NCBI GenBank assembly: GCA_963804545.1
Contig: CAWDQW010000002.1
Location: forward strand, 567,411-599,410
Source of the DNA: an uncultured Acidobacteriota bacterium
GTDB lineage: Bacteria > Acidobacteriota > Terriglobia > Acidiferrales > UBA7541
DNA length: 32,000 nucleotides
Direction of reading: 5' to 3'
The notes below the pieces were generated by a model. The model did not search any database, was not told where the DNA came from, and saw only the letters and a program-made list of their open reading frames with translations. Every line of letters starts with the position of its first letter. Position 1 is the stretch's first letter. Position numbers and translations under genes: made by a program. Positions 10,624 to 26,788 of the stretch are shown here, piece by piece.

Positions 10624-10655
10624 ACGTTCCTGCCCCCAAGTTCCTCCAAGTTCCT
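10624..10655 (+). repeat. Fragment of repeat family 2 (right arm + iterons)
   Basis: ACGTTCCTGCCCCCAAGTTCCTCCAAGTTCC resembles 16008-16036 (GAACGTTCCGTCTGCCCCCAGGTTTCCCCCAAGTTTCCC). Confidence 0.5.
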
Positions 10656-10915
10656 GCGCTCTTCCGGGCGCCACGATAGCCATCGTGGTTCACAGAAGTA
10701 TCGCTGGCAACGCCAATCTCTCCGCCAATCCCCGCGCTCCCATCTTCCCCACGCTGAGTATATCGCTGTCGGCGTATCGCACTCTTTCGTATAGACGTAG
10801 TGCGCCGCGAGCACTGGACAAGGGGTCTAAGTCCGCCAAAAGCATCTTGCAACTCCCTCTCGAACGGTCTACTATCTCTTCAATTCTCCAGCCTGCAACT
10901 CTCATGGAGGTTGCT

Positions 10916-12499
10916 ATGCTACCTGTCCCCCGTGCATCAGCCCTTCTCGTCGTGTCTGCTTTTTCAGTCTTTTCCGCAGGTTGCCGCAAAGAGCAGCACG
11001 CGGTCACCACATATCACTACGACAATATGCGGACCGGCTGGAATCACCAGGAAAAAGAACTGACGTACGACAAAGTGAAAAGTGCGCACTTCGGTTTAAT
11101 TCAAAAGGTCGTCCTGGAAGATCAGCTCGACACCCAGCCTCTCGTCGTGCCTCACGTGAATATCCCGACCGGTCCCAGCCCGGGCGTCCACGACGTCGTC
11201 TATGTCGCGACGGAAGGCGACACGGTTTACGCCATCGACGCCTCGAGCGGCGAGATCCTGCTCAGTCCGAAGCTCGGCAATCCCGTTCCTCTGCCCTTGG
11301 GATGCAACAACAACGGCCCCAACGTCGGCATTAACGGCACGCCGGTGATCGATCGCGACACGCACACTATGTTCGTGATCGTGTATGCACTCGAAGCGGG
11401 CGCGCCCGTTTATCGGCTTCATGCTCTCGACCTGAGTAGCCTTACCGACAAAATGCCATCCGTGGCTGTCAGTGCCTCGCACAAACTCACCAACGGGACG
11501 ATCTACAACTTCGACGCCAAAGTCCAGCGGCAGCGTCCCGCGCTTCTCCTCTCCAAGGGCAAGGTGTACGCCGGCTTTGGCAGCTTCTGCGATTTTTCGG
11601 CAAACGTTTCGCGCGGCTGGTTGCTCGGATGGGACGCCAATACGCTTGCCCCGCTTCCCGCAAATCAACTGGACGACACGCAAGCCACCTCTCCGAACAG
11701 TTTCTTCCTTTCCTCGATTTGGATGTCCGGCTACGGGCTCGCCGCCGACCCCGATGGCAACGTCTATTTCATCTCCGGCAACTCCGACTTCAGCGGAACC
11801 ACATACGACGGCGTGACGGACGTCCAGGAGAGCGTCGTCAAAGTCGCGCCGGATTTGAGCAAAATCCTGGATATTTTTACCCCGTCCAATTGGCCCAATC
11901 TCGACCAAACCGATAACGACTTTGGTTCAGGCGGTGCGCTCCTGATACCGCCTCAGGAGGGCGCCACGCCACACCTCGTGGCGGCGGCCGGAAAAGATGG
12001 CCGGCTCTTTATTCTTAATCGGAACGCCTTGGGTGGCTACACGCCCGGCGGGCCGGACAAAGTAGTCACGCAAGTCAGCATCGGTGGGTGTTGGTGCGGA
12101 CCGGCCTACTTTCACCAGCGCATCATCAGCAGCGGCGGCTCGACTGTAATCCTCTGGAAAATCAAAATATCGCCAAGCGTCTCATTACAACAGGAAGGCA
12201 CTTCCGCAGGCATCGGCGGCGCTCAGGATCCGGGATTCTTCACCAGCGTGAGTTCTGACGAGGAGCATCATCCCATCATTTGGGCGGTTTCCCGCCCGAA
12301 CAATCCCAGCCCGGCGGACATCTCTTTATTCGCGTTTAAGGCCGAACCAACGAGTGGCGGCACCCTCGATACATTATTCCAGGCGCCCGCCGGCAACTGG
12401 CCAAACACCAACGGCAATGCCAACCTCGTTCCGGTCGTGGTCGACGGCAAGGTCTATGTTGGAAGCAACAAACAGCTCAACATCTTCGGGATGCACTGA
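10916..12499 (+). CDS. Beta-propeller (PQQ/BamB-like repeat) lipoprotein
   Basis: Start placed at ATG 10916 (GGAGG at 10906-10910). Signal peptide with lipobox-like VFSAGC. Repeated pattern VVYVATEGDTVYAIDASSGEIL / DGKVYVGSNKQLNIF. The 5' 417 nt of the ORF-track ORF is non-coding repeat DNA. Confidence 0.75.
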   Translation: MLPVPRASALLVVSAFSVFSAGCRKEQHAVTTYHYDNMRTGWNHQEKELTYDKVKSAHFGLIQKVVLEDQLDTQPLVVPHVNIPTGPSPGVHDVVYVATEGDTVYAIDASSGEILLSPKLGNPVPLPLGCNNNGPNVGINGTPVIDRDTHTMFVIVYALEAGAPVYRLHALDLSSLTDKMPSVAVSASHKLTNGTIYNFDAKVQRQRPALLLSKGKVYAGFGSFCDFSANVSRGWLLGWDANTLAPLPANQLDDTQATSPNSFFLSSIWMSGYGLAADPDGNVYFISGNSDFSGTTYDGVTDVQESVVKVAPDLSKILDIFTPSNWPNLDQTDNDFGSGGALLIPPQEGATPHLVAAAGKDGRLFILNRNALGGYTPGGPDKVVTQVSIGGCWCGPAYFHQRIISSGGSTVILWKIKISPSVSLQQEGTSAGIGGAQDPGFFTSVSSDEEHHPIIWAVSRPNNPSPADISLFAFKAEPTSGGTLDTLFQAPAGNWPNTNGNANLVPVVVDGKVYVGSNKQLNIFGMH

Positions 12500-13282: not shown

Positions 13283-15794
13283 CTAGCGAGTCGCACCCGC
13301 TGGCGCTCCGCCGAAGTGGCGCGTCATCCGCGCAAGCAAAGCATCAAAGCGCGGGTCGCCGTGCAAATGGCTCAATCGCGGCTCCCGCGCCAAATAAACC
13401 AGCCACGGCGAGCGTTCCGCAAACGCCTGCTCCAGTAACGCGAAGGCTTGATCGTGGTCGCCGAGCGCTTCGTAAATCAATGCCAACTCATAGGGCGAAA
13501 CGTACCGTTCCGCGGATTGCGCAATGAGCCGCTCCAGCGTCCGAAGCGCATCCGCCCGATTGCCGTTGACCGCCTGCGCGTGCCCAAGAAAGCTGAGTTG
13601 CATACTCACGCCCGAGAGTTCCGCCCCTTTTCGGATGACTGCTTCTGCTTCGCCGGTCGCGCCAGCGCCTAGATGAGCCCAACCCTGAAAAATGCGATGC
13701 CACGAGAAGCCTGGATCGTTGGCCAACGCACGCCCTGATTCGCTGAGAGCTTGATCGAAGTTGTGCGCCATCACGTGGTGCCACATGAGGTGACGCCAGT
13801 GAAAAAGGATCCGCGGGATCGAGGTTCAGGTAGATTTTGCTCTCGGCCAGCGACTCCTCCATGCGTTCCGTTGCCACCAGCAGATGCGAATACCAATGGT
13901 GTGCCGGCCCGTAACGCGGATTGAGCCGGATGGCCTCCGAAAACAACCGCTCGGCCTCCGGAATCTCCCAGCGGTAGTGGAGCAGTGCGTAAGCCAGCGC
14001 CGCATGCCCCTCGGCCAGCTCTGGCTTCAGGCGAAGCGCCTGCTCCGCATACGACATCCCCTTTGAAAAACCCTCACGTGGCGGAAGCACACCGCCCTCC
14101 CAGCTCGCTAGCGTGTTGTAAGCATCCGCCAAGCCCGTGTACGCAAGGGCATACGTCGGATCGCGCTTGACCGCCTGTTCGAAGTAGGCAATTGCCTCCA
14201 TCGTGCCCGCCGGGCGTCTTCCCCAATGATGGCGGCCCTTCAAATACAGCGCGTACGCTTCCGGATCTTCCGAATGGCGCGCCGCCGAGGGGGAGCGGGC
14301 GCCCAGCAACTGTGGGCGCAGCTTGTCTACGATCGCAGCCGTGATCTCATCCTGCACTTCGAACACGTCCGTCATTTCCCGGTCGTACCGCTCGGACCAC
14401 AGGTGATGACCGTCGTTGACGTCGATCAACTGAACCGTGATCCGGAGCCGGTTACCGGCACGCCGAACACTTCCGTCGAGGATCACACCTACATTCAACC
14501 GCCGCCCAATTTCGCGAATATCCAACCCGTGCCCGCGTACGGCGGCGGCCGACGCTCGTGCGATCACCTGCAGGTCGTCATACAGACTGAGCGCGTGGAT
14601 CAGTTCCTCGGCCAGTCCGTCGCCGAATTGTTCGCCATCCCCACTCACGCTTGCAAAGGGCAACACCGCGATCGAAGAAGCCGGACTCGTGCTGGCCCTC
14701 GCCGGTTCGAGGTCGGCTCGGACGCCGCCACTGCGAAGTGCCTCGAGGAGCTCCGCCATCGACTGGTAGCGGTCCGCGACCTGTTTCCGCAGGCACCGCA
14801 GGATGATTTGTTCCAACCACACGGGAACGCGCGGCTGGACCCGCGACGGTGGCGGTGGATCATGCAACGCGATTTCGTGCATCGTCGATAGCAGACTGGA
14901 GGCCCTGAAAGGCAGCTGGCCCGTGACAGCCTCATAAAGGACCGAGCCGAAAGCAAAAATATCTGACCGCGCATCGAGCGGCTCACCGCGCGTCTGTTCG
15001 GGAGACATATAGGAAACCGTCCCCACCAACATTCCCAATACCGACTGTCCCGCATCGAGCGAATCGGCTCCCGCCGGAGTCAGCTGTTTGGCCAACCCGA
15101 AATCGAGAACCTTCACTTGGCCGTCGTTCGTGACCATAATGTTCGCGGGCTTGATGTCCCTGTGAATCAATCCCGCATCATGCGCAACCGCCAGAGCGCC
15201 GGCGAGTTGGATCGCATAAACGCCGGCCTCCGAAATCGGCAAGCCCTCGGGACGGATCAACTCCTTGAGCGTCTTACCCGCCACATATTCCATCACCAGG
15301 TAATCCACTTCGCCATCGCTCGCCATGTCGTGCAGCGTGACGATATTCGGGTGATTCAGCTTCGATGCCGCCCGCGCCTCCTGAAGGAAGCGTCTCTTTC
15401 GATCCGGATCGGCGACATGCGTCGAGGGCAGCACCTTAATCGCCACCGTCCGATGAAGTCGCGTGTCGAGGGCGCGGAACACCTGTCCCATGCCGCCGAC
15501 CCCGATTTCTTCAAGAATGCGGTAATGTCCCACCGCGATGCCCTTCAGGTCAGGCCTCGGCGCATCTGCCACCTTGACGGGCCCAACGCTGGTGGAGGTC
15601 ACCTGGCCCGCAAATGCTGGCTGGTCGATGAAGCTGGCAGAGTCGCTGTGATGAGCTAGCAGCGATTCCACCTCGCGGCGCAGTTCTGCATCACCAGCGC
15701 ACGATGCTTCAATCACAGAGCTGCGCTGGACTTCGTCCGCCTCGAGAGCCTTGTGAAAAATGCTTTCGACTTTTCCCCGTCGCTCAGGCTTCAT
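13283..15794 (-). CDS. Ser/Thr protein kinase with C-terminal TPR domain, reading frame broken at an A5/T5 run (13802-13806)
   Basis: HRDIKPANIM, DFGLAK and GTVSYMSPEQ motifs. TPR-like repeats continue in ORF 13283-13786, whereas the tail of the 768-aa ORF becomes Arg/Ser-rich nonsense after ...LNLDPADPF. Removing one T restores ADPFHWRHLMWHHVMAHNF. Confidence 0.8.
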
Positions 15795-15931: not shown

Positions 15932-16036
15932 GGAAATATAGGGACAGACGGGAAGTTTTCTCATGTTTCTCTTCGCACGAATCAAAAATTACCGGGAACG
16001 TTCCGTCTGCCCCCAGGTTTCCCCCAAGTTTCCCAG
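15932..16036 (+). repeat. Repeat family 2 (MITE-like inverted-repeat element), copy A
   Basis: GGAAATATAGGGACAGACGGGAAGTTTTCTCA..TTCTCTTCGCA..ATCAAAAATTACCGGGAACGTTCCGTCTGCCCCCAGGTTTCCCCCAAGTTTCCC. Confidence 0.8.
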
Positions 16037-16042
16037 TTTGAT

Positions 16043-16495
16043 TCACCGAGGCAAAGTTGAACTGCCGAACTGCGTCTTCACACGTTTGCGCGTGAACACG
16101 AGCCACCACCACAAACTGATGGGAACCAGCGCCCAAATCGCATACTCAAGGAACGCTGGCGTGAAATCGAACCCGGGATGACGCTTGTAGATCGCTTTCT
16201 CCACTACCGCTGCACACAACGGCACGGTCGCAAGGACGAGCGTCAGCCATCTGGCCCATATTCGGCGCATTAAGAGACCGGTCGCGCTAACTGCACATAC
16301 GATAATGATGGCCAGCAATCCTCCAAAGGCGTACCAGAGGTCCGGCGGGTGGATGTATTCAACCGAATACTCGGCAATCTCGATCCGCACAGCGCGCGCA
16401 AAAAGAATCAGGCCAAGCGCAGCAATCAGAAATTGCAAAACTACGACGGCGATTACCGGCAACGTAGGTAACTTCGCGCTCGATTCATCGTTCAT
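16043..16495 (-). CDS. Hypothetical 4-TM membrane protein
   Basis: Start placed at ATG 16495 (MNDESSAKLPTLPVIAVVVLQ...). Four hydrophobic helices. Overlaps the upstream DUF1311 gene end by 24 nt, suggesting an operon. Confidence 0.6.
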   Translation of the reverse strand: MNDESSAKLPTLPVIAVVVLQFLIAALGLILFARAVRIEIAEYSVEYIHPPDLWYAFGGLLAIIIVCAVSATGLLMRRIWARWLTLVLATVPLCAAVVEKAIYKRHPGFDFTPAFLEYAIWALVPISLWWWLVFTRKRVKTQFGSSTLPR

Positions 16496-16517
16496 TCTTA
16501 TTCTTCCTGCTGTTCCG

Positions 16518-17120
16518 TTAGAGATGCAGTTCTCCGCCATAGATCATGTTGAGCTCACGCATGTGGTCGCGCGTCAGCTTTACCTTGCACTCCAGTTGGA
16601 AGCTCGGTCCGCCCGTGCCGCCCCCGAACTGGTGGAAGGCAGCCGAGCAGGCGACTTCGCGGTATTGCTCCCAGCTTTGCTCCACGCGCTCGAACTCGCG
16701 CTCGAACTCTGGAGACGAGAGCACCGGTCCGGCTATCCCGTTCGCCGGTAGATTCGTCTCAACCGCTGGTTGCCCCGACACTTGCGGAGGCGCAGCGATC
16801 AGTCCCCGGATGAAGCCTTCATAGCTCTTCAGGTTCTGGTCAGTGATGGTTAACTGTTTTCCGTAGCAAAGGTTGAAGTCGTAGTCGGATTGAGCGTCAG
16901 GGCAGTCTCCCGCCTTCTCGCGGGCCATTTCCGTGTCGAAAACTTGTTTTGCTTGGGTTTGCAGACCACGGTGCTGCACCAAATACTGACGATAGACTTC
17001 CTGCTCGGGAGTTGGACCTTTCTTAGGGATTGCCGGATCTTCCTGACCGAGGATGAGCAGCGGAAGTGCAAAGCCGGCGCACAGCGTCGCAGCCCACCTA
17101 CGACCATTTCCCGCATGCAT
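16518..17120 (-). CDS. Secreted DUF1311 (LprI-like) protein
   Basis: Start at ATG 17120 (GGAGG upstream) gives signal peptide MHAGNGRRWAATLCAGFALPLLILG. DUF1311-like segments: CPDAQSDYDFNLCYGKQL... and EQSWEQYREVACSAAFHQFGGGTGGP...C. The ORF-track extension to 17375 runs into the IS. Confidence 0.7.
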   Translation of the reverse strand: MHAGNGRRWAATLCAGFALPLLILGQEDPAIPKKGPTPEQEVYRQYLVQHRGLQTQAKQVFDTEMAREKAGDCPDAQSDYDFNLCYGKQLTITDQNLKSYEGFIRGLIAAPPQVSGQPAVETNLPANGIAGPVLSSPEFEREFERVEQSWEQYREVACSAAFHQFGGGTGGPSFQLECKVKLTRDHMRELNMIYGGELHL

Positions 17121-17258
17121 AGGAACCTCCCTTTTAGCTCGGCTTCGTCCGAATTCTACCACTCTGCCGCGGACTGATTGGATGACGTTGTCGGCTCCTT
17201 CCACCGAGTAAACTTGGTAGCTGTTCGACGACCAAGGCTCGGAAAAAGGAGCCGAGCG

Positions 17259-18324
17259 ATGTTGATTATAGGATGTGATTTCCATACACGCTATCAGCAG
17301 ATTGCCATGGCCAGAGAAGAAACCGCAGAGATGCTTGTGGAGCGCCGATTGGACCACGAAAGCGGCGAAGCTCACGCGTTCTACCGGGGTTTGCAGAGTT
17401 CACAAGAACCAGTCCGCGTGGGCATCGAAGTCGACCGGCCCCATTCACTGGTTCGAGCGTTTGCTCACCGAGCTCGGCCACGAACTGTGGATCGGAGACT
17501 CCGCGAAGATTCGCGCCAGTGAAGTGCGCAAACAGAAGACCGATGAGCGCGACGCCCGGCTCATTCTCGATCTCTTGCTAGCGGAACGCTTCCCGAAAAT
17601 CTGGGTTCCCACACCGGCCGAACGCGATCTCCGACAGTTGCTCTGGCACCGTCACAAGCTCGTGTGCTTGCGCACCATGCTGGGCAACCAGCTGCACGCG
17701 CTGGCTATGAGCGAAGGGCTGTGTCGCAAGGGCAAGCTGTTCACCAAGAAGGGCCGCGTGGAACTCCAGCAGGTGGGGCTGGCTCCCTGGGCCAGCCGCC
17801 GGCGTGAAGAACTTCTGAAACTGCTCGAGCAACTCGAAGCCCCGATCGCGGAGTTGGATCGCGCCGTTCTGGAGCAAGCCCAGCGCCGCGAAGATGCCGT
17901 TTCCTTGATGACCCATCCCGGCATCGGACCGGTTACATCTCTGGCGTTTGTGCTGGCCATCGGTCCGGTAACTCGTTTTTCTTGCAGCAGAAAGATCGCG
18001 AGTTATCTGGGGTTGAACCCGACGGAGGACTCCAGCGGCGGGCGACGGCGGCTCGGAGGCATCAGCAAACAGGGCAACACCATGGTGCGTTGGCTGCTGA
18101 TCGAGGCCGTGTATCCCGCCGTGCGGAAGGATCCCGCGCTGCGGCAGGACTATCAACGATTGAAATTCCGTAGAGGACACGCGGTGGCCAAAGTGGCCAT
18201 TGCGCGCAAGTTGGCTGTGCGTATGTACTGGATGCTCCGCAGTAGAGCAAATTACGCGCAGCTGGTTCGCAGGCAAGGCAGCCCGGGGGCCACCCTGGTG
18301 GACGCGAGTCCATCGCTAGGCTGA
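17259..18324 (+). pseudogene. IS110-family DEDD transposase, frameshifted near 17430
   Basis: The N-terminus MLIIGCDFHTRYQQIA...VRVGIE is in frame 3 (AAGGAG RBS at 17246-17251). It continues as STGPIHWFERLLTELGHELWIGD...KTDERDARLILDLL...GISKQGN in the 17275-18324 frame. One extra nt lies between GAA and TCG. Confidence 0.85.
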
Positions 18325-18805: not shown

Positions 18806-18838
18806 CGGGGCGATTCGCCTCGCTTGCTCTCCGATTTT

Positions 18839-19059
18839 GTAGGGGCCGGGCTTCAGCCCGGCGTTTTTTGGACTTCCTCCCGAAATTCGCCGTGCGGTAA
18901 ATCCTGCTTCTCTCTTTCTGTTGTCCACGGGTTCTCGCACTTTTCTGCCTTCGATGTGTAAACAACGAGGCCAAGACGCCGGCCTGAAGGCCGGCCTCTA
19001 CACAGGTTCCTACCCGCAACAACCAGGATTAGGAGGCCGACCTGAAGGTCGGCCCCTAC
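18839..19059. repeat. REP hairpins, 3 copies: 18839-18863 (+), 18977-19001 (-), 19035-19059 (-)
   Basis: GTAGGGGCCGGGCTTCAGCCCGGCG and variants (GTAGAGGCCGGCCTTCAGGCCGGCG, GTAGGGGCCGACCTTCAGGTCGGCC). Each has a GTAG head plus an 8-bp palindromic stem with compensatory changes. Confidence 0.8.
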
Positions 19060-19092
19060 ACACGCCACTACATCTCTCTTAGGACGCATACT

Positions 19093-19788
19093 ATGCCAAA
19101 GACAAAACTCAACCCCAAGCTCCTCTGGATCCAGTTTGAAGATATTCTCGTCCCGCGTCTCGGCCTAACCGTTTGGGACCGCGCGGTCTACCACTATCTC
19201 CTGCGCCATTCTCTTCTCATCGGCAAGCGCCGTCTGCACTTCGCGGTGATGTCCGTGGCCCACACTCTGCGTCTCTCCAATGCCCCGGTGCGCCAAGCCG
19301 TACGCCGCCTCGATGAGCTCGGCGCTCTCCGCCTCCTCGAACGCAGCAAAACCGGCCATCTCGTCGAAATGCACCTGCCCGAACACATCCGTGCGCTTCA
19401 CGAAGACGATGGTCCGCCCGTCCTCACGGCCGCCGACGAAGCTCGCCTCTCCTCCAAACTCGAGGCCACCGATTTCATGAGCACCTGGGCGCTTCGCAAG
19501 ACCATTCACGATCGCGATCGCGGCGCCTGCTTTCACTGCCTTCGCCGCACACCCGCCCACGTCCGCTGCCTCGACCATGTCGTTCCTCGCGCCCGCTTCG
19601 GACGCAATTCCTACCGCAACCTCGTCTCCTGCTGCATCGAGTGCAACACCCTCAAAGGCGACATGCCCGCCCCCGATTTTCTCCGCCTCCTCTACCGCAA
19701 AGGCCGCCTAACCGCCGTCGAACTCGACGCCCGCCTCGCCGCCCTAAAAGACCTAGCCGCCGGCAAACTCCGCCCCGCGGGCTTCTGA
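19093..19788 (+). CDS. wHTH + HNH endonuclease domain protein
   Basis: HNH motif CFHCLRR...LDHVVPRARFGRNSYRNLVSCCIECNTLKG. N-terminal MarR/DnaD-like winged-helix-looking segment (VAHTLRLSNAPVRQAVRRLDELGALRLLE). Confidence 0.8.
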   Translation: MPKTKLNPKLLWIQFEDILVPRLGLTVWDRAVYHYLLRHSLLIGKRRLHFAVMSVAHTLRLSNAPVRQAVRRLDELGALRLLERSKTGHLVEMHLPEHIRALHEDDGPPVLTAADEARLSSKLEATDFMSTWALRKTIHDRDRGACFHCLRRTPAHVRCLDHVVPRARFGRNSYRNLVSCCIECNTLKGDMPAPDFLRLLYRKGRLTAVELDARLAALKDLAAGKLRPAGF

Positions 19789-19836
19789 TGCCGCAATCGC
19801 CCGCTGCTTTTGCCGTCAGGCTTTTATGGCCGTTTT

Positions 19837-19971
19837 GTAGCGCCGGGCTTCAGCCCGGCATCTGCTGGTAGCTGTTTTGTAGGGGCCGGGCTTTAGCCCG
19901 GCGTTTTCTGAAGCGAAGCCCAGCCCCTACAAACTCACCAGGCAGTTGCTGGGCTGAAGCCCAGCCTCTAC
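19837..19971. repeat. REP hairpins, 4 copies: 19837-19860 (+), 19879-19903 (+), 19913-19930 (- half), 19948-19971 (-)
   Basis: Same GTAG-headed palindrome. 19879-19930 forms an inverted REP pair (REPIN-like). The last copy overlaps the RAYT stop codon. Confidence 0.8.
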
Positions 19972-20486
19972 AAAGTCGTCTTTGCCTTCCACGGAGGCGT
20001 CCACTTTGTCCCGGAAGACCGCTTCATCCAATCAATAGTTTGCGACCCCGACAAAGGGTAAAGACGCGGGTCACTGCAAAGCCCCTTCCGTACGGGATTC
20101 CACCAAATGTAGCAGGCCACATCCTCCGGGACCTCTATCGGCCGCAGGATGTGATCGTAATAGCGCATTTGCCAGAGCCGCTGGCCATGAGTTTTTTTGA
20201 ACTCATAGCCCGTGCGCTGTTTGAAGGCATCGACGAACCGCACGAGATCGCAGGTGTCCGAGAGACCTTCACAAAGGAAATGAACATGGTCGGGCATCAC
20301 GCAATAGGCATGCAGAGAAAAATTCCGTTGCGCGGCAGTTTCCACGAGATGACGGAGCAGCTATTGCCCCCGCAACCTATCCGCGAAAAAAGTCGCGCGC
20401 CTCTCGGTCCCAACGGTTACGAAATAATGCTGGCGACCGCGGTAGTGTTCCGCAGGACGTCGCAGCCGTTTTTTAAAAAAGGCCAC
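19968..20486 (-). pseudogene. REP-associated tyrosine transposase (RAYT, IS200/IS605 Y1 family) with in-frame TAG at 20361-20363
   Basis: HUH motif HAYCVMPDHVHFL and Tyr motif LWQMRYYDHILR in ORF 19968-20345. The same frame upstream reads (GTG 20486) VAFFKKRLRRPAEHYRGRQHYFVTVGTERRATFFADRLRGQ*LLRHLVETAAQ..., the expected RAYT N-terminus. Confidence 0.8.
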
Positions 20487-20589
20487 GTCAAAAGGCTAAC
20501 ACCAAACGTTCCTGTACGCGCTGTGCTGCGACCAGTTCCGGCAGTTGTCCCGTACGCGCCGGGCTGCGACTAGTTCCGGTGGTTGTCCT

Positions 20590-20977
20590 GTAGGGGCCGG
20601 GCTTTAGCCCGGCGTTTTCGGTTTGTCGGCGCCGGGCTTCAGCCCGGCGCTTTTTGAAGCTAAGTCCTTGCCGTCAGGCCGATGTAGGGGCCGGGCTTTA
20701 GCCCGGCGGTGTTGGTAACTGTTTCGTATGTGCCGTGCTCTAGCCCGGCGCTTTCCGGCAGCAGCATTGTATGCGCCGGCCTTCCGCCCGGAAAAACTCA
20801 TCACGAACCCCGTTCCTCGTGCAACGACCGACGGCTGCGGCCAGTGCTCCGAGTCTCAATTTCAGAACGGGAGGGACTCGCTTCCCATGGATTTGCTGAT
20901 CTTCGGTTTGTAGAGGCCGGGCCTTAGCCCGGCGCTTTCAGGCAGCCGTTTTGTAGGGGCCGGGCTTTAGGCCGGCA
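20590..20977 (+). repeat. Array of 7 same-orientation REPs: 20590, 20625, 20684, 20726, 20769, 20910, 20953
   Basis: Copies of GTAGGGGCCGGGCTTTAGCCCGGCG with irregular spacing of about 10-120 nt. Two are degenerate (20726-20750, 20769-20791). Confidence 0.85.
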
Positions 20978-20988
20978 CTTTCGCGGAC

Positions 20989-21080
20989 GAAATATTGGAC
21001 AGACGGGAAATTTCCTCCTGCTTCTCTTCGCAATCAAAAACTACAGGGAACGTTCCGTTTGTCCCCAAGTTCACAAGTTC
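20989..21080 (+). repeat. Repeat family 2, copy B
   Basis: GAAATATTGGACAGACGGGAAATTTCCTCCTGCTTCTCTTCGCAATCAAAAACTACAGGGAACGTTCCGTTTGTCCCCAAGTTCACAAGTTC. Confidence 0.8.
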
Positions 21081-21106
21081 AACCTCCAATCAAGCTGTTG
21101 TATCAT
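21078..21106 (+). promoter_or_regulatory. Possible promoter of the small-protein operon: TTCAAC, 17 nt, TATCAT
   Basis: TTCAAC at 21078-21083 and TATCAT at 21101-21106 with a 17-nt spacer, just upstream of RBS GGAGGG (21114-21119). Confidence 0.35.
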
Positions 21107-21123
21107 TTCGCTTGGAGGGTAAT

Positions 21124-21291
21124 ATGTCTGGAAAGGCAAAGAAGAGTACTGTGACCGAGACTTATGGAATCTGCTGGGGCTGCGGGGCGATCATGAAGAG
21201 CAAGCCCGTTAGGTATCGCGGTCACAGTTATCACGAGGATTGTGCGGAGAAGGCGAGGAAAGAATCACGGGCGAAAAGCAAGTCTTATTGA
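21124..21291 (+). CDS. 55-aa basic Cys/His protein (LIM-like half zinc finger spacing)
   Basis: MSGKAKKSTVTETYGICWGCGAIMKSKPVRYRGHSYHEDCAEKARKESRAKSKSY has the pattern C-x2-C-x16-H-x2-C. GGAGGG RBS. The ORF-track 5' extension lies in the repeat. Confidence 0.6.
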   Translation: MSGKAKKSTVTETYGICWGCGAIMKSKPVRYRGHSYHEDCAEKARKESRAKSKSY

Positions 21292-21308
21292 TGAGGAGGG
21301 GGGCAACC

Positions 21309-21590
21309 ATGAGTCTTGTAAAACGTCAGATGGAGCAGAACCAAACGAAGCGGGATGTGGCATTGGGGATTGCTATAGAGGCAGGAGCGCTGGGCTCTTG
21401 TGCAATCCATGAAGATACGATCATCGATGGTTCAGGCGAAGTCGAAGAGGCGTATGAATTGGGAGACGCCAAGTTCGCGGATGGGTCATTATCGAATATT
21501 TTCGACAGCCAAGACGAAATGAAGGAATACATCAAAGCGGTTGTCGAGGAGAATGGTGGCGCTGAATGCAATCAGTGCTCGAAGGACTAA
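21309..21590 (+). CDS. 93-aa acidic hypothetical protein with C-terminal CxxC
   Basis: GAGGAGGGGGG at 21294-21304 precedes ATG 21309. Sequence MSLVKRQMEQNQTKRDVALGIAIEAGALGSCAIHEDT...ECNQCSKD. Confidence 0.65.
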   Translation: MSLVKRQMEQNQTKRDVALGIAIEAGALGSCAIHEDTIIDGSGEVEEAYELGDAKFADGSLSNIFDSQDEMKEYIKAVVEENGGAECNQCSKD

Positions 21591-22174
21591 ATCATCTCTG
21601 GCACGCGATCCTCTGGTGGTCAAATCAAAATTCGGGATTCGTTACGCTGCTGGGCTGCATACTCGGTATCCCCGGCGTATTCTATGTGGGCTGGAGCATT
21701 CGAACATACGTTGTCCAAAAGAATAAAGACGACATCAAGGAACAGCGGGAAAAAGCAGATCGGGCACTCGCCTTGGAACAGATGCAGTGGCGGGGAATCT
21801 ACAGAATCTCGAAGGAAATTCTCTATCATGCATCCCTTTTGCATGCAAACTCGTTGCAGCACAGCCAGCCAGCGCGGCAACTAGCGGCTATGGGGAGAGA
21901 TGTTACTGCCCCGTATCAGCAAGCGGGTATCGGCTTGGTCGCTGCCATCGGCGGTCTCCTCATGGAACTGACCTTGATTCCGCAATGTCAGCAAACGCTC
22001 TCGCTTGTCGAATTTTTTGCTGTCAAATACCATTCGACGGATCAGAGAGCAAGTGCGAAGTTTATCGAAGAATTGCAGGATATAAATGCTATGGTTCTGG
22101 CGAAGGCTGGTGGGAAGCCGCTGGAACTACCCGAATCGTGGAAGGACAAGATTTATCCGGGGATCGCACAATAG
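21566..22174 (+). CDS. 202-aa hypothetical protein with a single N-terminal TM helix
   Basis: TM segment FVTLLGCILGIPGVFYVGWSI followed by a helical-looking soluble part. Overlaps the previous gene by 25 nt. Confidence 0.65.
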   Translation: MQSVLEGLNHLWHAILWWSNQNSGFVTLLGCILGIPGVFYVGWSIRTYVVQKNKDDIKEQREKADRALALEQMQWRGIYRISKEILYHASLLHANSLQHSQPARQLAAMGRDVTAPYQQAGIGLVAAIGGLLMELTLIPQCQQTLSLVEFFAVKYHSTDQRASAKFIEELQDINAMVLAKAGGKPLELPESWKDKIYPGIAQ

Positions 22175-22201
22175 GCGAGAAATGAGGTTGGAGGAGCGAC
22201 G

Positions 22202-22636
22202 ATGGGCGAGCCGATGGACAGGTCGAGACGGGTGTTCGGGCAACTAACCACATTCGAAAAGGCGTTTCCCGCCCTCGAAGTTGCAACCATCTCATCATAC
22301 GAAGACGACGAAGGTGTATACAATTTCGAGACTGATGAATCCCAACGCAGAACTTTTGGAGAAGGAGTGCCATTTAGGGAGGGTCTCATTCCCTGTAGGA
22401 ATCCCCGTTGCAGAAGGGGCGGATATGAAGTTGACGACAGCCTGTATGAGATGGTGCGTGAAAAATCTACCGAGAAGGTATTTGTGAGAAAGTGCCCCGG
22501 CGATGAAGGCTCTCCAAAAGGCAGAAAACGGGGAGATAGGTGTGGGAACGTCCTTCACTACCGCTTAAGGATAAAGTACAAGCCCGAAGGTTTGCCGCAA
22601 GAAAACTTGGTAGAATCGAAGCAACGACCTCTGTAA
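22202..22636 (+). CDS. 144-aa hypothetical four-Cys (zinc-ribbon-like) protein
   Basis: GGAGGAG RBS at 22190-22196. Cys pattern CRNPRC...KCPGDEGSPKGRKRGDRCGN. Confidence 0.7.
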   Translation: MGEPMDRSRRVFGQLTTFEKAFPALEVATISSYEDDEGVYNFETDESQRRTFGEGVPFREGLIPCRNPRCRRGGYEVDDSLYEMVREKSTEKVFVRKCPGDEGSPKGRKRGDRCGNVLHYRLRIKYKPEGLPQENLVESKQRPL

Positions 22637-22676
22637 CTCATTCGGATCAGAGCGTGGTAGGGTAACGATTCCGGCC

Positions 22677-22955
22677 ATGGCGACAACCGTCCAGCTACCG
22701 AACAATAGATTCGAAGCCCCTCTTGTTATCGGTGATCTTGTTAATCTAGTGCTTCGGGCTGAAGACGGCGCTACGGGACCAGTTTGGCGCCTCGACGACA
22801 TCAAAGCTGGAAGGGCAGGAGAGTTTGCATACGCCGGAGACATCGAGGAAGCCAAGGCGGTAGCCGAAACAGCCGCTAGGGCACACGCCCATCATTTTCT
22901 CATGCGTGCTAGCAGTAACGAAAAAATTCCCCAAATAGTTTGGCATCAAATATGA
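22677..22955 (+). CDS. 92-aa hypothetical protein
   Basis: Last ORF of the same-strand cluster, with a weak RBS. No recognisable motif. Confidence 0.5.
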   Translation: MATTVQLPNNRFEAPLVIGDLVNLVLRAEDGATGPVWRLDDIKAGRAGEFAYAGDIEEAKAVAETAARAHAHHFLMRASSNEKIPQIVWHQI

Positions 22956-22970
22956 CGGTTCGAGTTTCGC

Positions 22971-23150
22971 CCGGGGAAACCGGGGGGAACCGGGGACGGG
23001 AAACCGGGGAAACCGGGGACGGAAACCGGGGGCAGACGGAACGTTTCCTACAATTTTTTTATTCGCGCGAGCAGAAACTCGAGGAAACTTCCCGCCTGTT
23101 CCCATATTTCCCATATTTCCCCCAATATTTCCCCATACTTCCCATATTTC
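22971..23150 (-). repeat. Repeat family 2, copy F (largest, both arms with iteron arrays)
   Basis: About six GGGGAAACC(G)-type units at 22971-23030. Arms GGGGGCAGACGGAACGTTTCC and GGAAACTTCCCGCCTGTTCCC. Five CCCATATTTC-type units at 23101-23150. Lies between convergent stops at 22955 and 23229. Confidence 0.85.
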
Positions 23151-23228
23151 GCAACGGCTACATCGCTTTTTTATTACGTTCGCAGCGAATTTGAAGCGAA
23201 GGCGAAGAGGGCGAGGTTGGTGGGATCC

Positions 23229-23921
23229 CTATACTTGGCCAGAATGCTTTACGTTCCGCACTTTTAGATCGCGTCGGACAGCTTCCAAGAGATGCTTGTA
23301 GTCGGTGACTGGAAAACTAGTGTGGGCTTCCGCGCTAAAGAGGCCACTGTAAAAATTTACTACGCGAATTCCATTGTCGATCAAAGCCTTTATTTCCGTG
23401 AACGGGAAGAAGTTTTGTGCGGTAAAACCTACCAGGTCCAACGCGCTTGAGCGGCTGCGATGTGCAAAATACATGTGCCGCCACGTTATGAGCTTCTTGA
23501 CTGAAGGGTCCGCGTCGCTAACGGCTATCGAGTCTTTTTGAAGTTGCGCGGCGTCTGGCTTCCGAGGCGCAGCCGCAAGTGAATCGACGAACGGATTAGC
23601 TTTCAATCTTTCACGGAAGTTTGGCTCATCGAAGAAATGGAGATTCGCTTCGATTGTGTCCAAGAGGTTCGTAAGAGTGAGATTCGGTTTGGTGTCCATC
23701 GGATCGTAGGCCCGGCAGAGTCGCATAAGAGCGGCATCCATGAGAGCACGGTTCGTCAAAGTCCAGAACGCAGCGGATTGGTTGAACTCCACTTGGTAGT
23801 CAGGGATGGCGGCGTTGAGGTCTTGATGAAGGCGAAAGTAGTCACGCGCGTCAATGAGGTCGTCCGCCAAAGACCGTAGCAGTCGCTTAAATTCAGCGGA
23901 GTCGGCAACCTCGATCTTCAT
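23229..23921 (-). CDS. HEPN-domain protein, AbiU2-like (putative abortive-infection RNase)
   Basis: 230-aa ORF with GAGGAG 8 nt before the ATG. WRHMYFAHRS gives R148-x5-H154 (Rx4-6H HEPN signature with the ..AH ending seen in Abi-type HEPNs). The N-terminal half LMRLCRAYDP....LTLTNLLDTI resembles AbiU2-type proteins as I recall them. Confidence 0.55.
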   Translation of the reverse strand: MKIEVADSAEFKRLLRSLADDLIDARDYFRLHQDLNAAIPDYQVEFNQSAAFWTLTNRALMDAALMRLCRAYDPMDTKPNLTLTNLLDTIEANLHFFDEPNFRERLKANPFVDSLAAAPRKPDAAQLQKDSIAVSDADPSVKKLITWRHMYFAHRSRSSALDLVGFTAQNFFPFTEIKALIDNGIRVVNFYSGLFSAEAHTSFPVTDYKHLLEAVRRDLKVRNVKHSGQV

Positions 23922-24030
23922 TTTCGTTACTCCTCAACGGCCATTGTGCCACGTCTTAGTCCCTACTTCCTCGGCGCACCGCGTTCCTCGATCCGCTTCA
24001 GAATCGCCTCAGCCTCCTGGATACGTGTTG

Positions 24031-24116
24031 GAATACGGGGATAGACCGGCAGTTTCCTCACCCTTCTCCTCGCAATCGAAAACCAAGGAAGCGTTCCGGC
24101 CTGTTGCCAAGTTTTC
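24031..24116 (+). repeat. Repeat family 2, copy D
   Basis: GAATACGGGGATAGACCGGCAGTTTCCTCACCCTTCTCCTCGCAATCGAAAACCAAGGAAGCGTTCCGGCCTGTTGCCAAGTTTTC. Confidence 0.75.
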
Positions 24117-24143
24117 AAAAATGCGAAGCTTGCTCCTACGATT

Positions 24144-24224
24144 GGAAACCCGGGAAATACGGGGACAGGCGGGAAGTTTTCTCATACTTCTCTTCGCAAT
24201 CAAGAACTACAGGAGCGTTCCGCC
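24144..24224 (+). repeat. Repeat family 2, copy C (tandem with D)
   Basis: GGAAACCCGGGAAATACGGGGACAGGCGGGAAGTTTTCTCATACTTCTCTTCGCAATCAAGAACTACAGGAGCGTTCCGCC. Confidence 0.8.
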
Positions 24225-24522: not shown

Positions 24523-24588
24523 GAGAAACCCGGAGAAACCCGGGAGAAACCCGGGGACAGACGGGAAGTTTCCTCACCCTTTTCTTCG
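24523..24588 (+). repeat. Repeat family 2, copy E (left half: 3 iterons + arm)
   Basis: GAGAAACCCGGAGAAACCCGGGAGAAACCCGGGGACAGACGGGAAGTTTCCTCACCCTTTTCTTCGG, truncated after the core start. Confidence 0.75.
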
Positions 24589-24830
24589 GCGGGTGGGACG
24601 CCATTCAGATATGAATCTGAGTAGCGAAAAATACTCCCTTTTTCCTTCGCCATGCAACTGTGCCGGAGGGCACAGGAAATGCCACCAGAATTTCGCAGCC
24701 ATTCGCTTCGCGAATGCTTAGGTGCGCCCTTAAGCCTACTTGCGTAAACTTTGAATATCGCCCATTTGGGGCTAGCCGAAATAACGACTGCATTCACGAT
24801 TAGCCGTGTTGAACAACCAAGGAGACAAAA

Positions 24831-25679
24831 ATGAGTAATAATAAAGTTTGGTTTGTTACCGGCGCAGGCCGGGGACTCGGCATCAAGATTGCCCAGAAGG
24901 CGTTGGCCGCCGGGCACTCCGTTGTGGCGACTGGCCGTAACCCGCACGCGGTCTTGAAGGCGGTTGGCGCTCACGAAAACCTATTAACAGTTGCGCTAGA
25001 TATCACCGACGCCGAGGCTGCGGCCAAAGCAGCGGAAGCTGCCGTTCTCCGCTTCGGGCGCATCGACGTCCTGGTCAACAACGCAGGCAATTTCTACGCG
25101 GGTTATTTCGAAAACATTCGTCCAGATCATTTCCGGGCTCAGATGGAGACCAATTTCTTTGGTCCTCTTAACGTCACGCGCGCTATCCTTCCGATCATGC
25201 GAGCGCAGCGGAGTGGCCAGATTATAACGGTAACCTCGCTCGCGGGCCTCATCGGTCAGGAATTCGTTGTTGCCTATGCTGCCTCCAAGTTCGCGCTGGA
25301 AGGTTGGATGGAATCGCTCCGTTTCGATGTGGCGCCTTTCGGCATTCGCACCCTGGTGGTTGAGCCTGGGTTCTTCCGTACCGAACTACTGGTCGAAGGC
25401 GCATCGACGATATGGCCGGATATGGCCGTCGAAGACTACGCCGAGCGAACCAAACAAACGATCACGGCTTGGTCCGGCATGAACGGTCAGCAAGGAGGCG
25501 ATCCCGCCAAACTCGCGGCTGCAATTGTGAGGCTCTCGGATTCCGATAAGCTCCCACTGCGATTTATTGCGGGTTCCGACGCTATGGCGGCTGTAGAAGC
25601 CAATCTCAAGACCATCCAGGAGCAGATAGACGCACATCGCGACTTATCTGCGTCTCTTATGTTCGACAAAGGGCAATGA
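24831..25679 (+). CDS. SDR-family short-chain oxidoreductase
   Basis: VTGAGRGLG cofactor motif and YAASKFALEG catalytic YxxxK. AAGGAG RBS. Confidence 0.9.
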   Translation: MSNNKVWFVTGAGRGLGIKIAQKALAAGHSVVATGRNPHAVLKAVGAHENLLTVALDITDAEAAAKAAEAAVLRFGRIDVLVNNAGNFYAGYFENIRPDHFRAQMETNFFGPLNVTRAILPIMRAQRSGQIITVTSLAGLIGQEFVVAYAASKFALEGWMESLRFDVAPFGIRTLVVEPGFFRTELLVEGASTIWPDMAVEDYAERTKQTITAWSGMNGQQGGDPAKLAAAIVRLSDSDKLPLRFIAGSDAMAAVEANLKTIQEQIDAHRDLSASLMFDKGQ

Positions 25680-25695
25680 TTTGGAGCCTTGTGAG

Positions 25696-25820
25696 GCGGG
25701 TGGCAGCGCCTTTATTCCTGGGTGGCCTGTCGTTTGCGCTTTTGTCTCATGCAAACGGTGGGTCACTCTTCTCCGGTTCTGTCCTATCTACTCACTGCCC
25801 ACTATTCACTACTCACTCGC
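25696..25820. repeat. Dispersed repeat family 1, modules a + truncated b
   Basis: Matches 12995-13120. Sits between the convergent SDR and ribF genes and supplies the last codons of ribF. Confidence 0.8.
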
Positions 25821-26788
25821 GCGTTCAGCAACGAACGGCGGGTGCGAAGGCGGGTGAAGAATTTGTTGGCGGTGGCTATGTCTTTCGCGATTTGGGCGCG
25901 GAGTTCTTCGGGGCCGCTGAATTTTTTTTCTTCGCGGAGGCGCTTCCAGAAATGGATTTCGATGCGGCCCGGGGAGATTTCCGGAACGGGCTCGAGGATA
26001 TGCGTTTCGACGCTGAGGGACGAACCGTTGAAGGTGGGGCGCACGCCGATATTTGTGACCGAACGGCGAGTGCGCGATTCGCCCTCGAGAAGCGTGCGCG
26101 TGATGTAGACGCCGCGAGCGGGCAGGAGTTCCTGCTCGGGAGCGAGATTCAACGTGGGAAAGGTGAAGCGGCGGCCAGTGCCGGTGCCCGGGACGACTTT
26201 ACCGGTGAGGACGAAGGGACGGCCGAGAAGGCGGGCGGCATGAGAAACGTCACCTGTGGCGATCTCGCGGCGGATGATGGTGCTGGAGACGATTTCGTTT
26301 TTGCAGACGACGGGCGGGAGAATGACGACGTCGAAACCGCGGTCGGCGCCGAGCAAGAGAAGCATCCGCGCGTTGCCGGCCTGTTTGTGGCCGAAGCGGA
26401 AATTTTCGCCGACATAAACGGCGCGAACGCTCAGATCGCGGACGAGGATTTGGTCCACGAATTCTTCGGGAGTGAGTCTTGCGAGGTCGTGAGTGAAGGG
26501 GAGGACGAGGGCGGCTTCGATGCCGAGTTCGGCGAAGCAGCGCAGGCGCTGCTCGGTGGTGGAGACGCGCAAGGGAGCGGATTCCGGGCGAAGAACTTTT
26601 TGAGGTAGCGGATCGAAGGTAAGAGCTGTGGGTACAGCTTGGATTTCGTGGGCGCGTGCGACGGAGGCGCGAAGGATGGCCTGGTGGCCGAGATGAATGC
26701 CATCAAAATTGCCAATGGCGAGGGTGCTGCCGGTTTGCGATTTGCCATAACGAATCGACCACGCCAGCGGCGTGGAGAAAATCTCGAG
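25802..26788 (-). CDS. ribF: Bifunctional riboflavin kinase / FMN adenylyltransferase; start codon unresolved
   Basis: GNFDGIHLGHQ (encoded at 26681-26713), GRRFTFPTLN and ETHILE motifs. The frame is open upstream, but the first ATG/GTG/TTG is TTG 26572, downstream of the adenylyltransferase motif. The N-terminus by homology is about LEIFSTPLAW (26788). Confidence 0.8.
   Translation of the reverse strand, partial: LEIFSTPLAWSIRYGKSQTGSTLAIGNFDGIHLGHQAILRASVARAHEIQAVPTALTFDPLPQKVLRPESAPLRVSTTEQRLRCFAELGIEAALVLPFTHDLARLTPEEFVDQILVRDLSVRAVYVGENFRFGHKQAGNARMLLLLGADRGFDVVILPPVVCKNEIVSSTIIRREIATGDVSHAARLLGRPFVLTGKVVPGTGTGRRFTFPTLNLAPEQELLPARGVYITRTLLEGESRTRRSVTNIGVRPTFNGSSLSVETHILEPVPEISPGRIEIHFWKRLREEKKFSGPEELRAQIAKDIATANKFFTRLRTRRSLLNARVSSE

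Follow-up and report, generated by a model that had tools for sequence, protein, structure and literature searches.

Results

A low-GC cluster of five ORFs in a variable stretch

Core genes of the window (the whole 32,000-nucleotide stretch of Acidobacteriota DNA that was analysed, to which all positions refer) enclose a variable stretch at 16-24.8 kb that contains IS110 (17275-18324, from the scan of window ORFs), a RAYT gene (19968-20345, by family match), ten REP copies (18835-20984, by repeat search) and six copies of an intergenic repeat termed family 2. A Ser/Thr kinase gene (13488-15794) and the SDR/ribF genes (24831-26572) lie on its two sides. Within this stretch, five ORFs (O1 to O5, 21124-22955, forward strand) follow one another with successive gaps of 17, -25 (an overlap), 27 and 40 nt, and an HEPN_AbiU2-domain gene (23229-23921, reverse strand) is convergent on them. 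The earlier note on this DNA, made from the sequence alone, had described five tightly packed same-strand ORFs with the REP/RAYT locus and an IS nearby, family-2 repeats on both sides and a convergent HEPN Abi-like gene, and all of these features were confirmed, including the coordinates and products of the ORFs and the exact O1/O2 junction (TGA at 21289-21291, GAGGAGGGGGG, then ATG at 21309). The IS is IS110, and the convergent gene matches Pfam PF18734 (97.5 bits, cut-off 26.8; E = 9e-28; positions 2-189 of the 193-position profile). An HNH endonuclease gene with phage-type PHROG matches lies 1.3 kb upstream and has the native GC content of 0.63.

The cluster is also lower in GC, as had been claimed, with 0.51 over 21078-22955 compared to 0.56-0.63 in core genes and 0.574 in the whole window, and GC3 is 0.45-0.61 in the five ORFs versus 0.62-0.75 in core genes. 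The AbiU2 gene (GC 0.515) falls within the same low-GC block, and GC is nearly equal across O1-O5 and AbiU2. Clear SD sites precede three ORFs (O1, with GGAGGG, O2 and O4), in agreement with the first description; the start of O3 has a sub-optimal one (GAGGAG, 14 nt upstream), and no SD site was found at the start of O5. Of the promoter that had been proposed ahead of the cluster, the sequence TTCAAC-17-TATCAT is indeed there (21078-21106, forward strand), but it agrees with the consensus at only 8 of 12 positions; a scan of 20500-24200 found no promoter and did not report this one, a putative weak sigma-70-like element. From the short gaps, the clear SD sites of three ORFs and a large repeat hairpin downstream of O5, co-transcription of O1 to O5 is probable.

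That hairpin (about 150 nt, fold z-score -2.1) comprises two head-to-head family-2 copies (D3, D6, I1, I3) in the O5/AbiU2 intergenic region (22975-23135) and may serve as a bidirectional terminator between these convergent genes. Another copy, an imperfect long hairpin (fold z-score -2.7), stands directly before the cluster (20988-21075, forward strand). The family-2 core, GGACAGACGGGAAATTTCCTC, occurs 6 times in the window versus 0.01 expected by chance, Rfam gave no match over 15.5-25.5 kb, and the repeat is absent from all loci with homologs of the genes except L001, a contig identical to the window. A 98-aa TTG extension (20995-21291), an 84-aa ORF (22940-23194) and an 80-aa gene called on L001 were rejected as genes, each being translated repeat.

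Families and folds of the five products

O1 (21124-21291, forward strand) would encode a protein of 55 aa (pI 9.7), in which C17-x2-C20-x16-H37-x2-C40 fits the LIM/C2HC ligand spacing C-x2-C-x16-23-H-x2-C. The proposal of a LIM-type half finger thus holds for the spacing but finds no echo in zinc-finger family models: matches to Pfam were insignificant (zf-RING_UBOX at 0.074 and zf-C3H2C3 at 0.095, below cut-off), the LIM HMM did not match, and PHROGs, PADLOC and NCBIfam gave nothing. As read from the sequence, O1 shares C-x2-C-x16-H-x2-C and an aromatic residue before the His (SYHEDC) with LIM-type/treble-clef C2HC fingers, but differs from them in having one half-finger only and no homologs. 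Among the best 150 matches listed by an exhaustive search against 1.84 billion representatives, O1 found only itself, and the gene calls of the identical contig L001 do not include it. O1 is an orphan ORF, a candidate gene that may not be one. Phage lambda Orf55, of equal length, was dismissed as a counterpart, as it is an alpha/beta Gp2-like protein and has no zinc finger.

Judged at the sequence level, O2 to O5 are real genes, because conserved homologs exist. O2 (21309-21590, forward strand) encodes an acidic protein of 93 aa (pI 4.3, C-terminus ECNQCSKD). The earlier note had been able to name none of the five families, which is wrong for O2: it belongs to the Ea8.5 family of phage lambda, matching Pfam PF20735 (Lambda_ea8_5; 53.1 bits, cut-off 27; E = 5e-14; positions 5-86 of the 90-position profile), phrog_6325 (2e-11) and the NMR structures of prophage homologs in the PDB entries 2M7B (E = 2e-16, residues 3-92, full length) and 2M7A (2e-8). 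O2 residues C31, H34, C87 and C90 align to the zinc ligands (C-x2-H...C-x2-C) of both structures. In lambda, Ea8.5 is encoded among the small non-essential early genes from exo to xis (PMC8614690, PMC3824215). O2 lies outside any recognisable prophage, with no integrase, structural or replication genes among the scanned window ORFs and no tRNA, and a 60%-identical homolog in another locus (L045) is likewise solitary; a phage or prophage location is a context feature of the family that homology does not require. We consider O2 an Ea8.5-type homeodomain/zinc-finger protein of phage ancestry that probably binds DNA or a protein partner, although family membership gives it no mechanism, because the function of Ea8.5 is itself unresolved (PMC8614690).

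O3 (21566-22174, forward strand; 202 aa) combines an N-terminal hydrophobic, predicted TM helix, FVTLLGCILGIPGVFYVGWSI, with a helical body. Its family is narrow and acidobacterial (25 homologs found), and the AlphaFold2 (AF2) model is all helical with a pLDDT of 86. O3 has no match in Pfam, PHROG, PADLOC or NCBIfam, and a Foldseek search of the model against PDB and BFVD returned nothing below E = 0.2. O3 shares DNA homology with its homologs only from about codon 10 onward, and the ATG native to the homologs is missing and has been replaced; by this comparison, translation of O3 must begin at the ATG at 21566, inside the 3' end of O2, as a borrowed start codon. The O2/O3 junction is a secondary one. 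The O3 homologs of 72-79% identity have none of the other window ORFs near them, and one O3 homolog is a solitary gene adjoining an MFS transporter gene. O3 is probably a membrane-anchored helical protein that exists as a stand-alone gene in other genomes. Two proteins with a hydrophobic N-terminus, of 163 aa (locus L035) and 185 aa (L034), were rejected as remote O3 homologs (hhalign probability 0.15 and at most 0.10).

O4 (22202-22636, forward strand; 144 aa, four Cys) belongs to a large unannotated four-Cys alpha/beta family of proteins of about 130 aa. A word-index search gave 89 homologs, and O4 relatives make up most of the best 150 of 377 50%-identity clusters in the exhaustive search. 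C65, C70, C98, C114, P23 and G73 are invariant in the family, whose acidobacterial subfamily has the invariant N-terminus MGEPMDRSxRVF. No match was obtained with Pfam, PHROGs, PADLOC or NCBIfam, no Pfam family appeared among 95 members, a profile of 95 relatives hit nothing among PDB sequences, and the AF2 model (pLDDT 76) gave nothing below E = 0.2 when compared with PDB and BFVD by Foldseek. The four-Cys protein is a probable zinc-ribbon from a widespread, solitary family, and it probably binds nucleic acid, because it is basic.

DNA homology to the O4 homologs starts about 25 nt upstream of the ATG and includes the SD site. When the ORFs within 2.5 kb of the O4 homologs at 17 non-redundant loci were clustered, no conserved partner emerged, only shadow ORFs, and in 12 GTDB genomes the neighbours are mostly housekeeping genes (glycosyl hydrolases, HSP70 and peptidases, for example). 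At locus L035 the O4 homolog follows the 163-aa protein mentioned above, which is unrelated and has a hydrophobic N-terminus and a helical body.

O5 (22677-22955, forward strand; 92 aa) has no motif and belongs to a small conserved family whose homologs, at 49-79% identity, occur in three unrelated contexts, among them one beside TIR genes and another on a contig that also encodes DNA polymerase A and a ligase. O5 matched nothing in Pfam, PHROGs, PADLOC or NCBIfam. It is a small protein that has different neighbours in each locus.

The five genes do not travel together

The co-occurrence count covered about 25 non-redundant loci with homologs of O2, O3, O4 or O5 (17 for O4, 5 for O3, 3 for O5 and 1 for O2), and in none of them were other window ORFs found nearby. 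The homolog searches were shallower for O1 and O2 than for O3 and O4. The arrangement is repeated only in L001 and L002, contigs from peat and soil samples that are 100% identical to the window, so the five-gene module that had been proposed is not conserved outside this genome. Acidobacterial phages and mobile elements are poorly represented in databases, so that not finding the set elsewhere counts for less here than it would in enterobacteria. The breaks in DNA homology coincide exactly with the gene borders (about codon 10 of O3 and about 25 nt before the ATG of O4).

The neighbours of the homologs include BrnTA, ParE/Fic, RHS/TIR and SIR2 genes, as well as IS3 on a Fibrella plasmid. Horizontal acquisition, as first suggested, is supported by the GC and GC3 deficit common to AbiU2, by the repeat-, RAYT- and IS110-rich setting, by the scattered contexts of the homologs and by the O4 homologs, whose GC is below that of their flanks in 13 of 17 loci. 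The AbiU2 gene is evolutionarily unlinked to the five ORFs: a homolog on an Allocoleopsis plasmid adjoins SNF2 and VapC genes and has no relatives of O1-O5 beside it.

The idea of a phage-derived moron cassette fared better for one gene than for the group, as O2 belongs to the lambda Ea8.5 family but none of O1-O5 had a tblastn match in 50,697 phage genomes. Among viral contigs no relative of O2 or AbiU2 was found, and one O4 relative was, on an IMG/VR contig with integrase and Mrr genes. PHROG scans of two contigs with homologs (L020 and L038) returned weak matches only, backing their phage nature weakly. The further suggestion of a novel anti-phage system found no counterpart in PADLOC-DB, where O1-O5 and the AbiU2 gene matched 0 families at E <= 1, and the gene set never occurs together elsewhere.

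Discussion

We consider it probable that the cluster is a mosaic, specific to this strain, of accessory genes that move independently, rather than a co-evolved module. Family membership, the lack of co-occurrence, the positions of the junctions and the composition are what the data show directly. The genes would have evolved separately, with no common mechanism, and the block would have been built by illegitimate recombination at gene borders, as in mosaic phage 'moron'/accessory regions, within a variable part of the Acidobacteriota chromosome that is rich in repeats, RAYT and IS sequences. We infer a phage or other mobile-element origin for all of the genes except O2. Against a mosaic, the tight spacing and the O2/O3 overlap look like a functional operon, and co-transcribed genes, even newly assembled ones, can gain a joint function. 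The near-equal GC of O1-O5 and AbiU2 agrees with a joint arrival from one donor that has not been sampled, for example an acidobacterial phage, and genes from one such donor could form a functional unit; a physical interaction among O3, O4 and O5 is also possible.

Another explanation, which we think unlikely, is that an acidobacterial prophage or integrative element not yet sampled left behind its early or accessory region here, the five genes and AbiU2 having arrived in one piece of about 3 kb. Such a remnant would resemble the lambda exo-xis region, in which small genes act jointly on host physiology and the lysis-lysogeny decision. The membership of O2 in the Ea8.5 family, whose lambda member is an early gene of that region (PMC8614690, PMC3824215), argues for such a remnant, as do the uniform GC over the five ORFs and AbiU2, the integrase beside the O4 homolog on the IMG/VR contig, the location of O5 and O3 homologs on contigs rich in small ORFs of one orientation (one contig also encoding DNA polymerase A and ligase) and the phage-type PHROG matches of the upstream HNH endonuclease. 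The scanned window ORFs, however, include no integrase, structural or replication genes, there is no tRNA, the tblastn comparison of O1-O5 with the 50,697 phage genomes was empty, the PHROG backing for the two homolog contigs is weak and the HNH gene has the GC of native genes.

A further reading, quite unlikely in our view, would make O4 the founding member within Acidobacteriota of a family that Pfam, NCBIfam, PHROGs and PADLOC do not list, that spans hundreds of 50%-identity clusters reaching into Bacteroidota and whose fold would be unlike those in PDB/BFVD. O4 would bind nucleic acid on its own, as a factor derived from a mobile element (with a role in single-gene defence, anti-defence or addiction, for example), possibly recruited here with O5 and the probably membrane-anchored O3 into a young composite unit beside AbiU2.

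It is very unlikely that the cluster is a new multi-gene anti-phage or counter-defence system in which zinc proteins sense nucleic acid and O3 is the membrane effector, perhaps acting with AbiU2. The operon-like organisation, the adjoining HEPN_AbiU2 gene, the position of several O4 and O5 homologs beside TA, TIR, SIR2, RHS or Mrr genes, the lack of a known fold match for O3 and O4 and the pairing of an O4 homolog with the 163-aa helical protein at L035 would be consistent with such a system. These points are set against the absence of PADLOC matches and of co-occurrence outside the identical strain, O3 homologs of 72-79% identity that stand without the other window ORFs, the mostly housekeeping O4 neighbours in the 12 GTDB genomes, an L035 protein with no detectable homology to O3 (hhalign probability 0.15), an AbiU2 homolog with different partners elsewhere and a secondary O2/O3 junction.

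We give hardly any credence to a cassette-like array in which family-2 repeats act as attC- or MITE-end-like recombination sites capturing gene units: hairpin-forming copies do stand immediately ahead of O1 and on either side of AbiU2, with inverted arms around the five ORFs (21036-21066/23028-23058) and around AbiU2 (23067-23120/24144-24197) and all six copies concentrated at 15.9-24.6 kb, but the repeat is absent from every other homolog locus, the copies are only 60-84% alike and thus not recently duplicated, the scanned ORFs include no integron integrase (IS110 and RAYT being the only nearby recombinases) and the O2/O3 and O3/O4 breakpoints lie inside the bracket, where there is no repeat. 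As the repeats do not accompany the genes elsewhere, they were rejected as cassette boundaries.

Under the first reading, the cluster would have been a new immune system with five components, from a phylum, the Acidobacteriota, that is little studied; the evidence contradicts this. The value of the case is mainly negative, in that tight operon-like packing, low GC and a nearby Abi gene are insufficient grounds for proposing a defence system if the genes are not found in each other's company. Two positive points emerge beside it. The Ea8.5 homeodomain/zinc-finger family extends into Acidobacteriota chromosomes, which gives this phage protein a wider host range, and the O4 family, large, conserved and absent from Pfam, NCBIfam, PHROGs, PADLOC and PDB, is a reasonable candidate for a new domain of unknown function and the only part of the cluster worth follow-up, structural study included.

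Comparison with known systems

O2 resembles lambda Ea8.5 in belonging to a family with a hybrid homeodomain/zinc-finger fold and in sitting among small co-oriented genes. The lambda exo-xis region otherwise differs from the window, where the backbone genes exo, xis and int are absent, orf60a, orf61, orf63, orf73, ea22 and orf55 have no counterparts and the host is an acidobacterium.

Defence islands as catalogued by PADLOC/DefenseFinder share with this locus the adjoining HEPN_AbiU2 gene and, for some homologs, the proximity of TA, TIR, SIR2 and Mrr genes. Unlike catalogued defence systems, the five ORFs match no model, their set is not conserved, and the O4 neighbours are mostly housekeeping genes.

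The class to which we compare the mosaic is that of phage 'moron'/mosaic accessory clusters and of the chromosomal hotspots that collect such cargo. A classical moron lies within a phage genome and has its own promoter and terminator, whereas here no phage genome flanks the cluster and both signals are putative. As in such clusters, the genes are small and lower in GC and have their own SD sites (clear in O1, O2 and O4), the breakpoints fall at gene borders, each gene keeps different company elsewhere, and IS and REP sequences adjoin.

Five short ORFs in a low-GC block of a variable region

Five ORFs (O1-O5) lie on the + strand where the earlier note had placed them: O1 (21124-21291; 55 aa, pI 9.7, CWGC-x16-HEDC), O2 (21309-21590; 93 aa, pI 4.3), O3 (21566-22174; 202 aa), O4 (22202-22636; 144 aa, four Cys) and O5 (22677-22955; 92 aa), with intergenic distances, in that order, of 17, -25, 27 and 40 nt. 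SD sequences are strong for O1, O2 and O4 and distant for O3, and none was found at the O5 start. The lower GC reported for the cluster was likewise confirmed (0.51, compared with 0.574 window-wide and 0.56-0.63 in core genes), and GC3 is 0.45-0.61 versus 0.62-0.75 in core genes. Since the convergent AbiU2 gene (23229-23921, - strand; Pfam HEPN_AbiU2, E = 9e-28) is equally low in GC (0.515), the anomalous block spans ~21.07-24.0 kb. The promoter proposed for the cluster, TTCAAC-17-TATCAT, agrees with the consensus at only 8 of 12 positions, and a promoter scan was silent on it. The leader 5' of O1 (21083-21118) contains a possible hairpin that pairs CCUCCAA with the O1 SD (UUGGAGG) and holds the proposed -10 hexamer in its loop; should transcription begin further upstream, the hairpin could mask the O1 ribosome-binding site.

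The window at large is ordinary chromosome. Core genes enclose a variable stretch (16-24.8 kb), with MgtE, Nramp, uppS, cdsA, dxr, rseP, Fur and a Ser/Thr kinase to one side of it and SDR, ribF and MBL to the other. Besides an IS110 transposase and a wHTH-HNH protein, the stretch harbours a RAYT together with ten REP copies and a further dispersed repeat, family-2, in six copies. The left edge of the stretch is a pair of overlapping minus-strand ORFs (16043-17375), placed between the IS110 copy and a family-2 repeat; the 285-aa product carries an LprI lysozyme-inhibitor domain at its C-terminus, and the 165-aa one matched nothing in Pfam or NCBIfam. The REP copies (GTAGGGGCCGGGCTTTAGCCCGGCG; 18835-20984) occur in both orientations around the Y1 transposase (RAYT-like) gene at 19968-20345, a short ORF (125 aa) that matches the Y1_Tnp profile only at positions 34-102 and may be N-terminally truncated or have its true start further upstream. 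REP copies also lie on either side of the wHTH-HNH gene (19093-19788), which has native GC (0.63) and whose 231-aa product has a wHTH-like region at the N-terminus and, at the C-terminus, an HNH nuclease weakly similar to the HNH of IscB, Cas9 and PtuB.

Family-2 repeats have the core GGACAGACGGGAAGTTTCCTC, flanked 5' by 9-11-nt tandem units (GGAAACCGGGG or GGGAAATAT) that vary in number and 3' by CTTCTCTTCGCAATCAAAAACTACAGGnnCGTTCCG, and fold into long imperfect hairpins. Six cores were observed in the window versus 0.01 expected. The repeat lies at 15942-15962, 20988-21075, 22975-23135, 24030-24100, 24144-24222 and 24524-24590, always between genes, and the six copies are restricted to the variable region (15.9-24.6 kb). 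Between O5 and AbiU2, two copies lie head to head and could act as a bidirectional terminator. None of the other homolog-bearing loci contains the repeat, which has no match in Rfam and is therefore a species-specific intergenic repeat; a role as cassette boundary was rejected on the same absence.

The five genes do not travel together

Co-occurrence of the five genes, which the earlier note had listed among its checks, was the decisive test. We compared the contexts in 17 non-redundant loci with O4 homologs (31-78% identity), five with O3 homologs (51-79%), three with O5 homologs and one with a 60%-identical O2 homolog; searching every fetched locus with all five proteins (tblastn and blastp) revealed no second member in any, and the arrangement recurred only in two Logan contigs (L001 and L002) that are 100% identical to the window. 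Clustering the ORFs within 2.5 kb of O4 homologs likewise gave no conserved partner, only overlapping shadow ORFs. A 79%-identical O3 homolog is solitary, flanked by an MFS transporter and by unrelated genes. An O5 homolog, also 79% identical, converges on TIR-domain genes and has no O4 nearby. The 78%-identical O4 homolog, with a SIR2 gene near, is preceded by a 163-aa protein whose N-terminus is hydrophobic; this unrelated protein was considered as an O3 relative and showed no homology to O3. Homolog names place the organism with soil/peat Acidobacteriota, such as Terracidiphilus and Acidoferrales.

In DNA alignments homology ends at gene borders. O3 similarity starts at about codon 10, GGA/CTA stands in the window where the homologs have their ATG, and the O2 stop codon lies 2 nt before the O3 homology; given this replacement, O3 can start only at ATG 21566, inside O2. 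The 25-nt O2/O3 overlap is a secondary fusion junction rather than an ancestral coupling. O4 homology starts ~25 nt 5' of its ATG, SD included.

Identity of the products

The proteins had been called unrecognisable, which is wrong for O2: it belongs to the Lambda_ea8_5 family (PF20735; 53 bits, cut-off 27), is also matched by phrog_6325, and aligns with the solved prophage homologs of lambda Ea8.5, 2M7B (2e-16) and 2M7A (2e-8), whose zinc ligands line up with C31, H34, C87 and C90. The ECNQC tail spotted earlier is therefore half of a zinc site.

O4 has 89 homologs by word-index search, and its family makes up most of the best 150 of 377 clusters in an exhaustive HMMER search. Members are ~120-140 aa with invariant C65, C70, C98, C114 and P23; no Pfam family is present in 95 members, and O4 matched no PDB sequence, nor did its model (pLDDT 76) match PDB or BFVD by Foldseek. 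One member (29% identical) adjoins IS3 on a Fibrella (Bacteroidota) plasmid. Comparing window 22202-22240 with L003, L007, L011, L021, L022, L026, L028 and L035, we found that the first 12 residues of the acidobacterial subfamily, MGEPMDRSxRVF, are strikingly, almost fully invariant although these homologs are otherwise merely 42-50% identical, and that ~20 nt 5' of the start (GTGAAGTTGGAGGAA) are kept among closer homologs; such conservation is unusual. All genome matches are acidobacterial except L022 (JBAZYD010000001.1; 52% identity), whose 139-kb contig has the bin label 'Candidatus Micrarchaeia archaeon' and is probably mis-binned, the other reading being inter-domain transfer. Some O4 homologs are L056-type fusions (P0056, P0072, P0052 and P0079; ~230-237 aa) in which the four-Cys module is joined to another unannotated domain, a conserved ~100-aa C-terminal extension (…SFxRPGxGDACTLCLHEGxQIWRKTYR…HPLSRAL…) with no Pfam match.

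The 25 close homologs of O3 are for the most part 70-81% identical to it. O3 combines an N-terminal hydrophobic (predicted TM) helix with a confidently helical body (model pLDDT 86) without a fold match in PDB. On a 3.3-Mb acidobacterial contig (L015; ERZ25039506 contig_1715), a solitary Cas1-domain gene (10415-11938; 507 aa) has an O3 homolog and an AAA_25 protein in its vicinity; no CRISPR-Cas genes were called near this gene, which may represent a stand-alone Cas1 or a casposon-like element. O5 has a handful of clearly conserved homologs (49-79% identity). O1 matched only itself among the best 150 matches listed in the exhaustive HMMER search, was not called on the 100%-identical contig L001, and may not be a gene.

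Origin of the cluster

In our view the cluster is probably a patchwork of independently mobile accessory genes that is specific to the strain and probably co-transcribed. Lying in a recombination-prone variable region, it would comprise a phage-type protein of the Ea8.5 family (O2), a protein that is normally solitary and joins a helical body to a hydrophobic N-terminal helix (O3), a member of a large unannotated four-Cys family (O4) and a small roaming protein (O5), with O1 as a doubtful ORF. In 13/17 loci the O4 homolog is lower in GC than its flanks, which is compatible with a roaming gene. A single block from an unsampled acidobacterial prophage, resembling an exo-xis accessory region, is an unlikelier origin that overlaps with the patchwork and is inseparable from it here; tblastn of O1-O5 against 50,697 phage genomes found no match.

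The earlier note's proposal of a five-gene defence system is very improbable, given that the genes lack co-occurrence and the junctions are secondary. Some homologs do have mobile or conflict genes as neighbours (BrnTA, ParE/Fic, RHS plus TIR/AbiJ, SIR2), TIR genes adjoin one O5 homolog, and an O4 homolog on an IMG/VR contig lies with an integrase, Mrr and a weak HEPN match. Because most O4 neighbours in 12 GTDB genomes belong to housekeeping families, and just two integrases and one IS are among them, the defence-island association is anecdotal. The PADLOC check suggested earlier matched none of O1-O5, and an AbiU2 homolog on a cyanobacterial plasmid adjoins SNF2 and VapC genes, not O1-O5 relatives. 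Least probable of all is a repeat-mediated cassette array, as the family-2 repeats do not accompany the genes elsewhere.

The junction pattern of the patchwork is that of mosaic accessory regions arising from illegitimate recombination, and the known counterpart of O2, lambda Ea8.5, is a non-essential early gene of the exo-xis region whose function is not settled and whose fold is a hybrid homeodomain/zinc-finger (PMC8614690).
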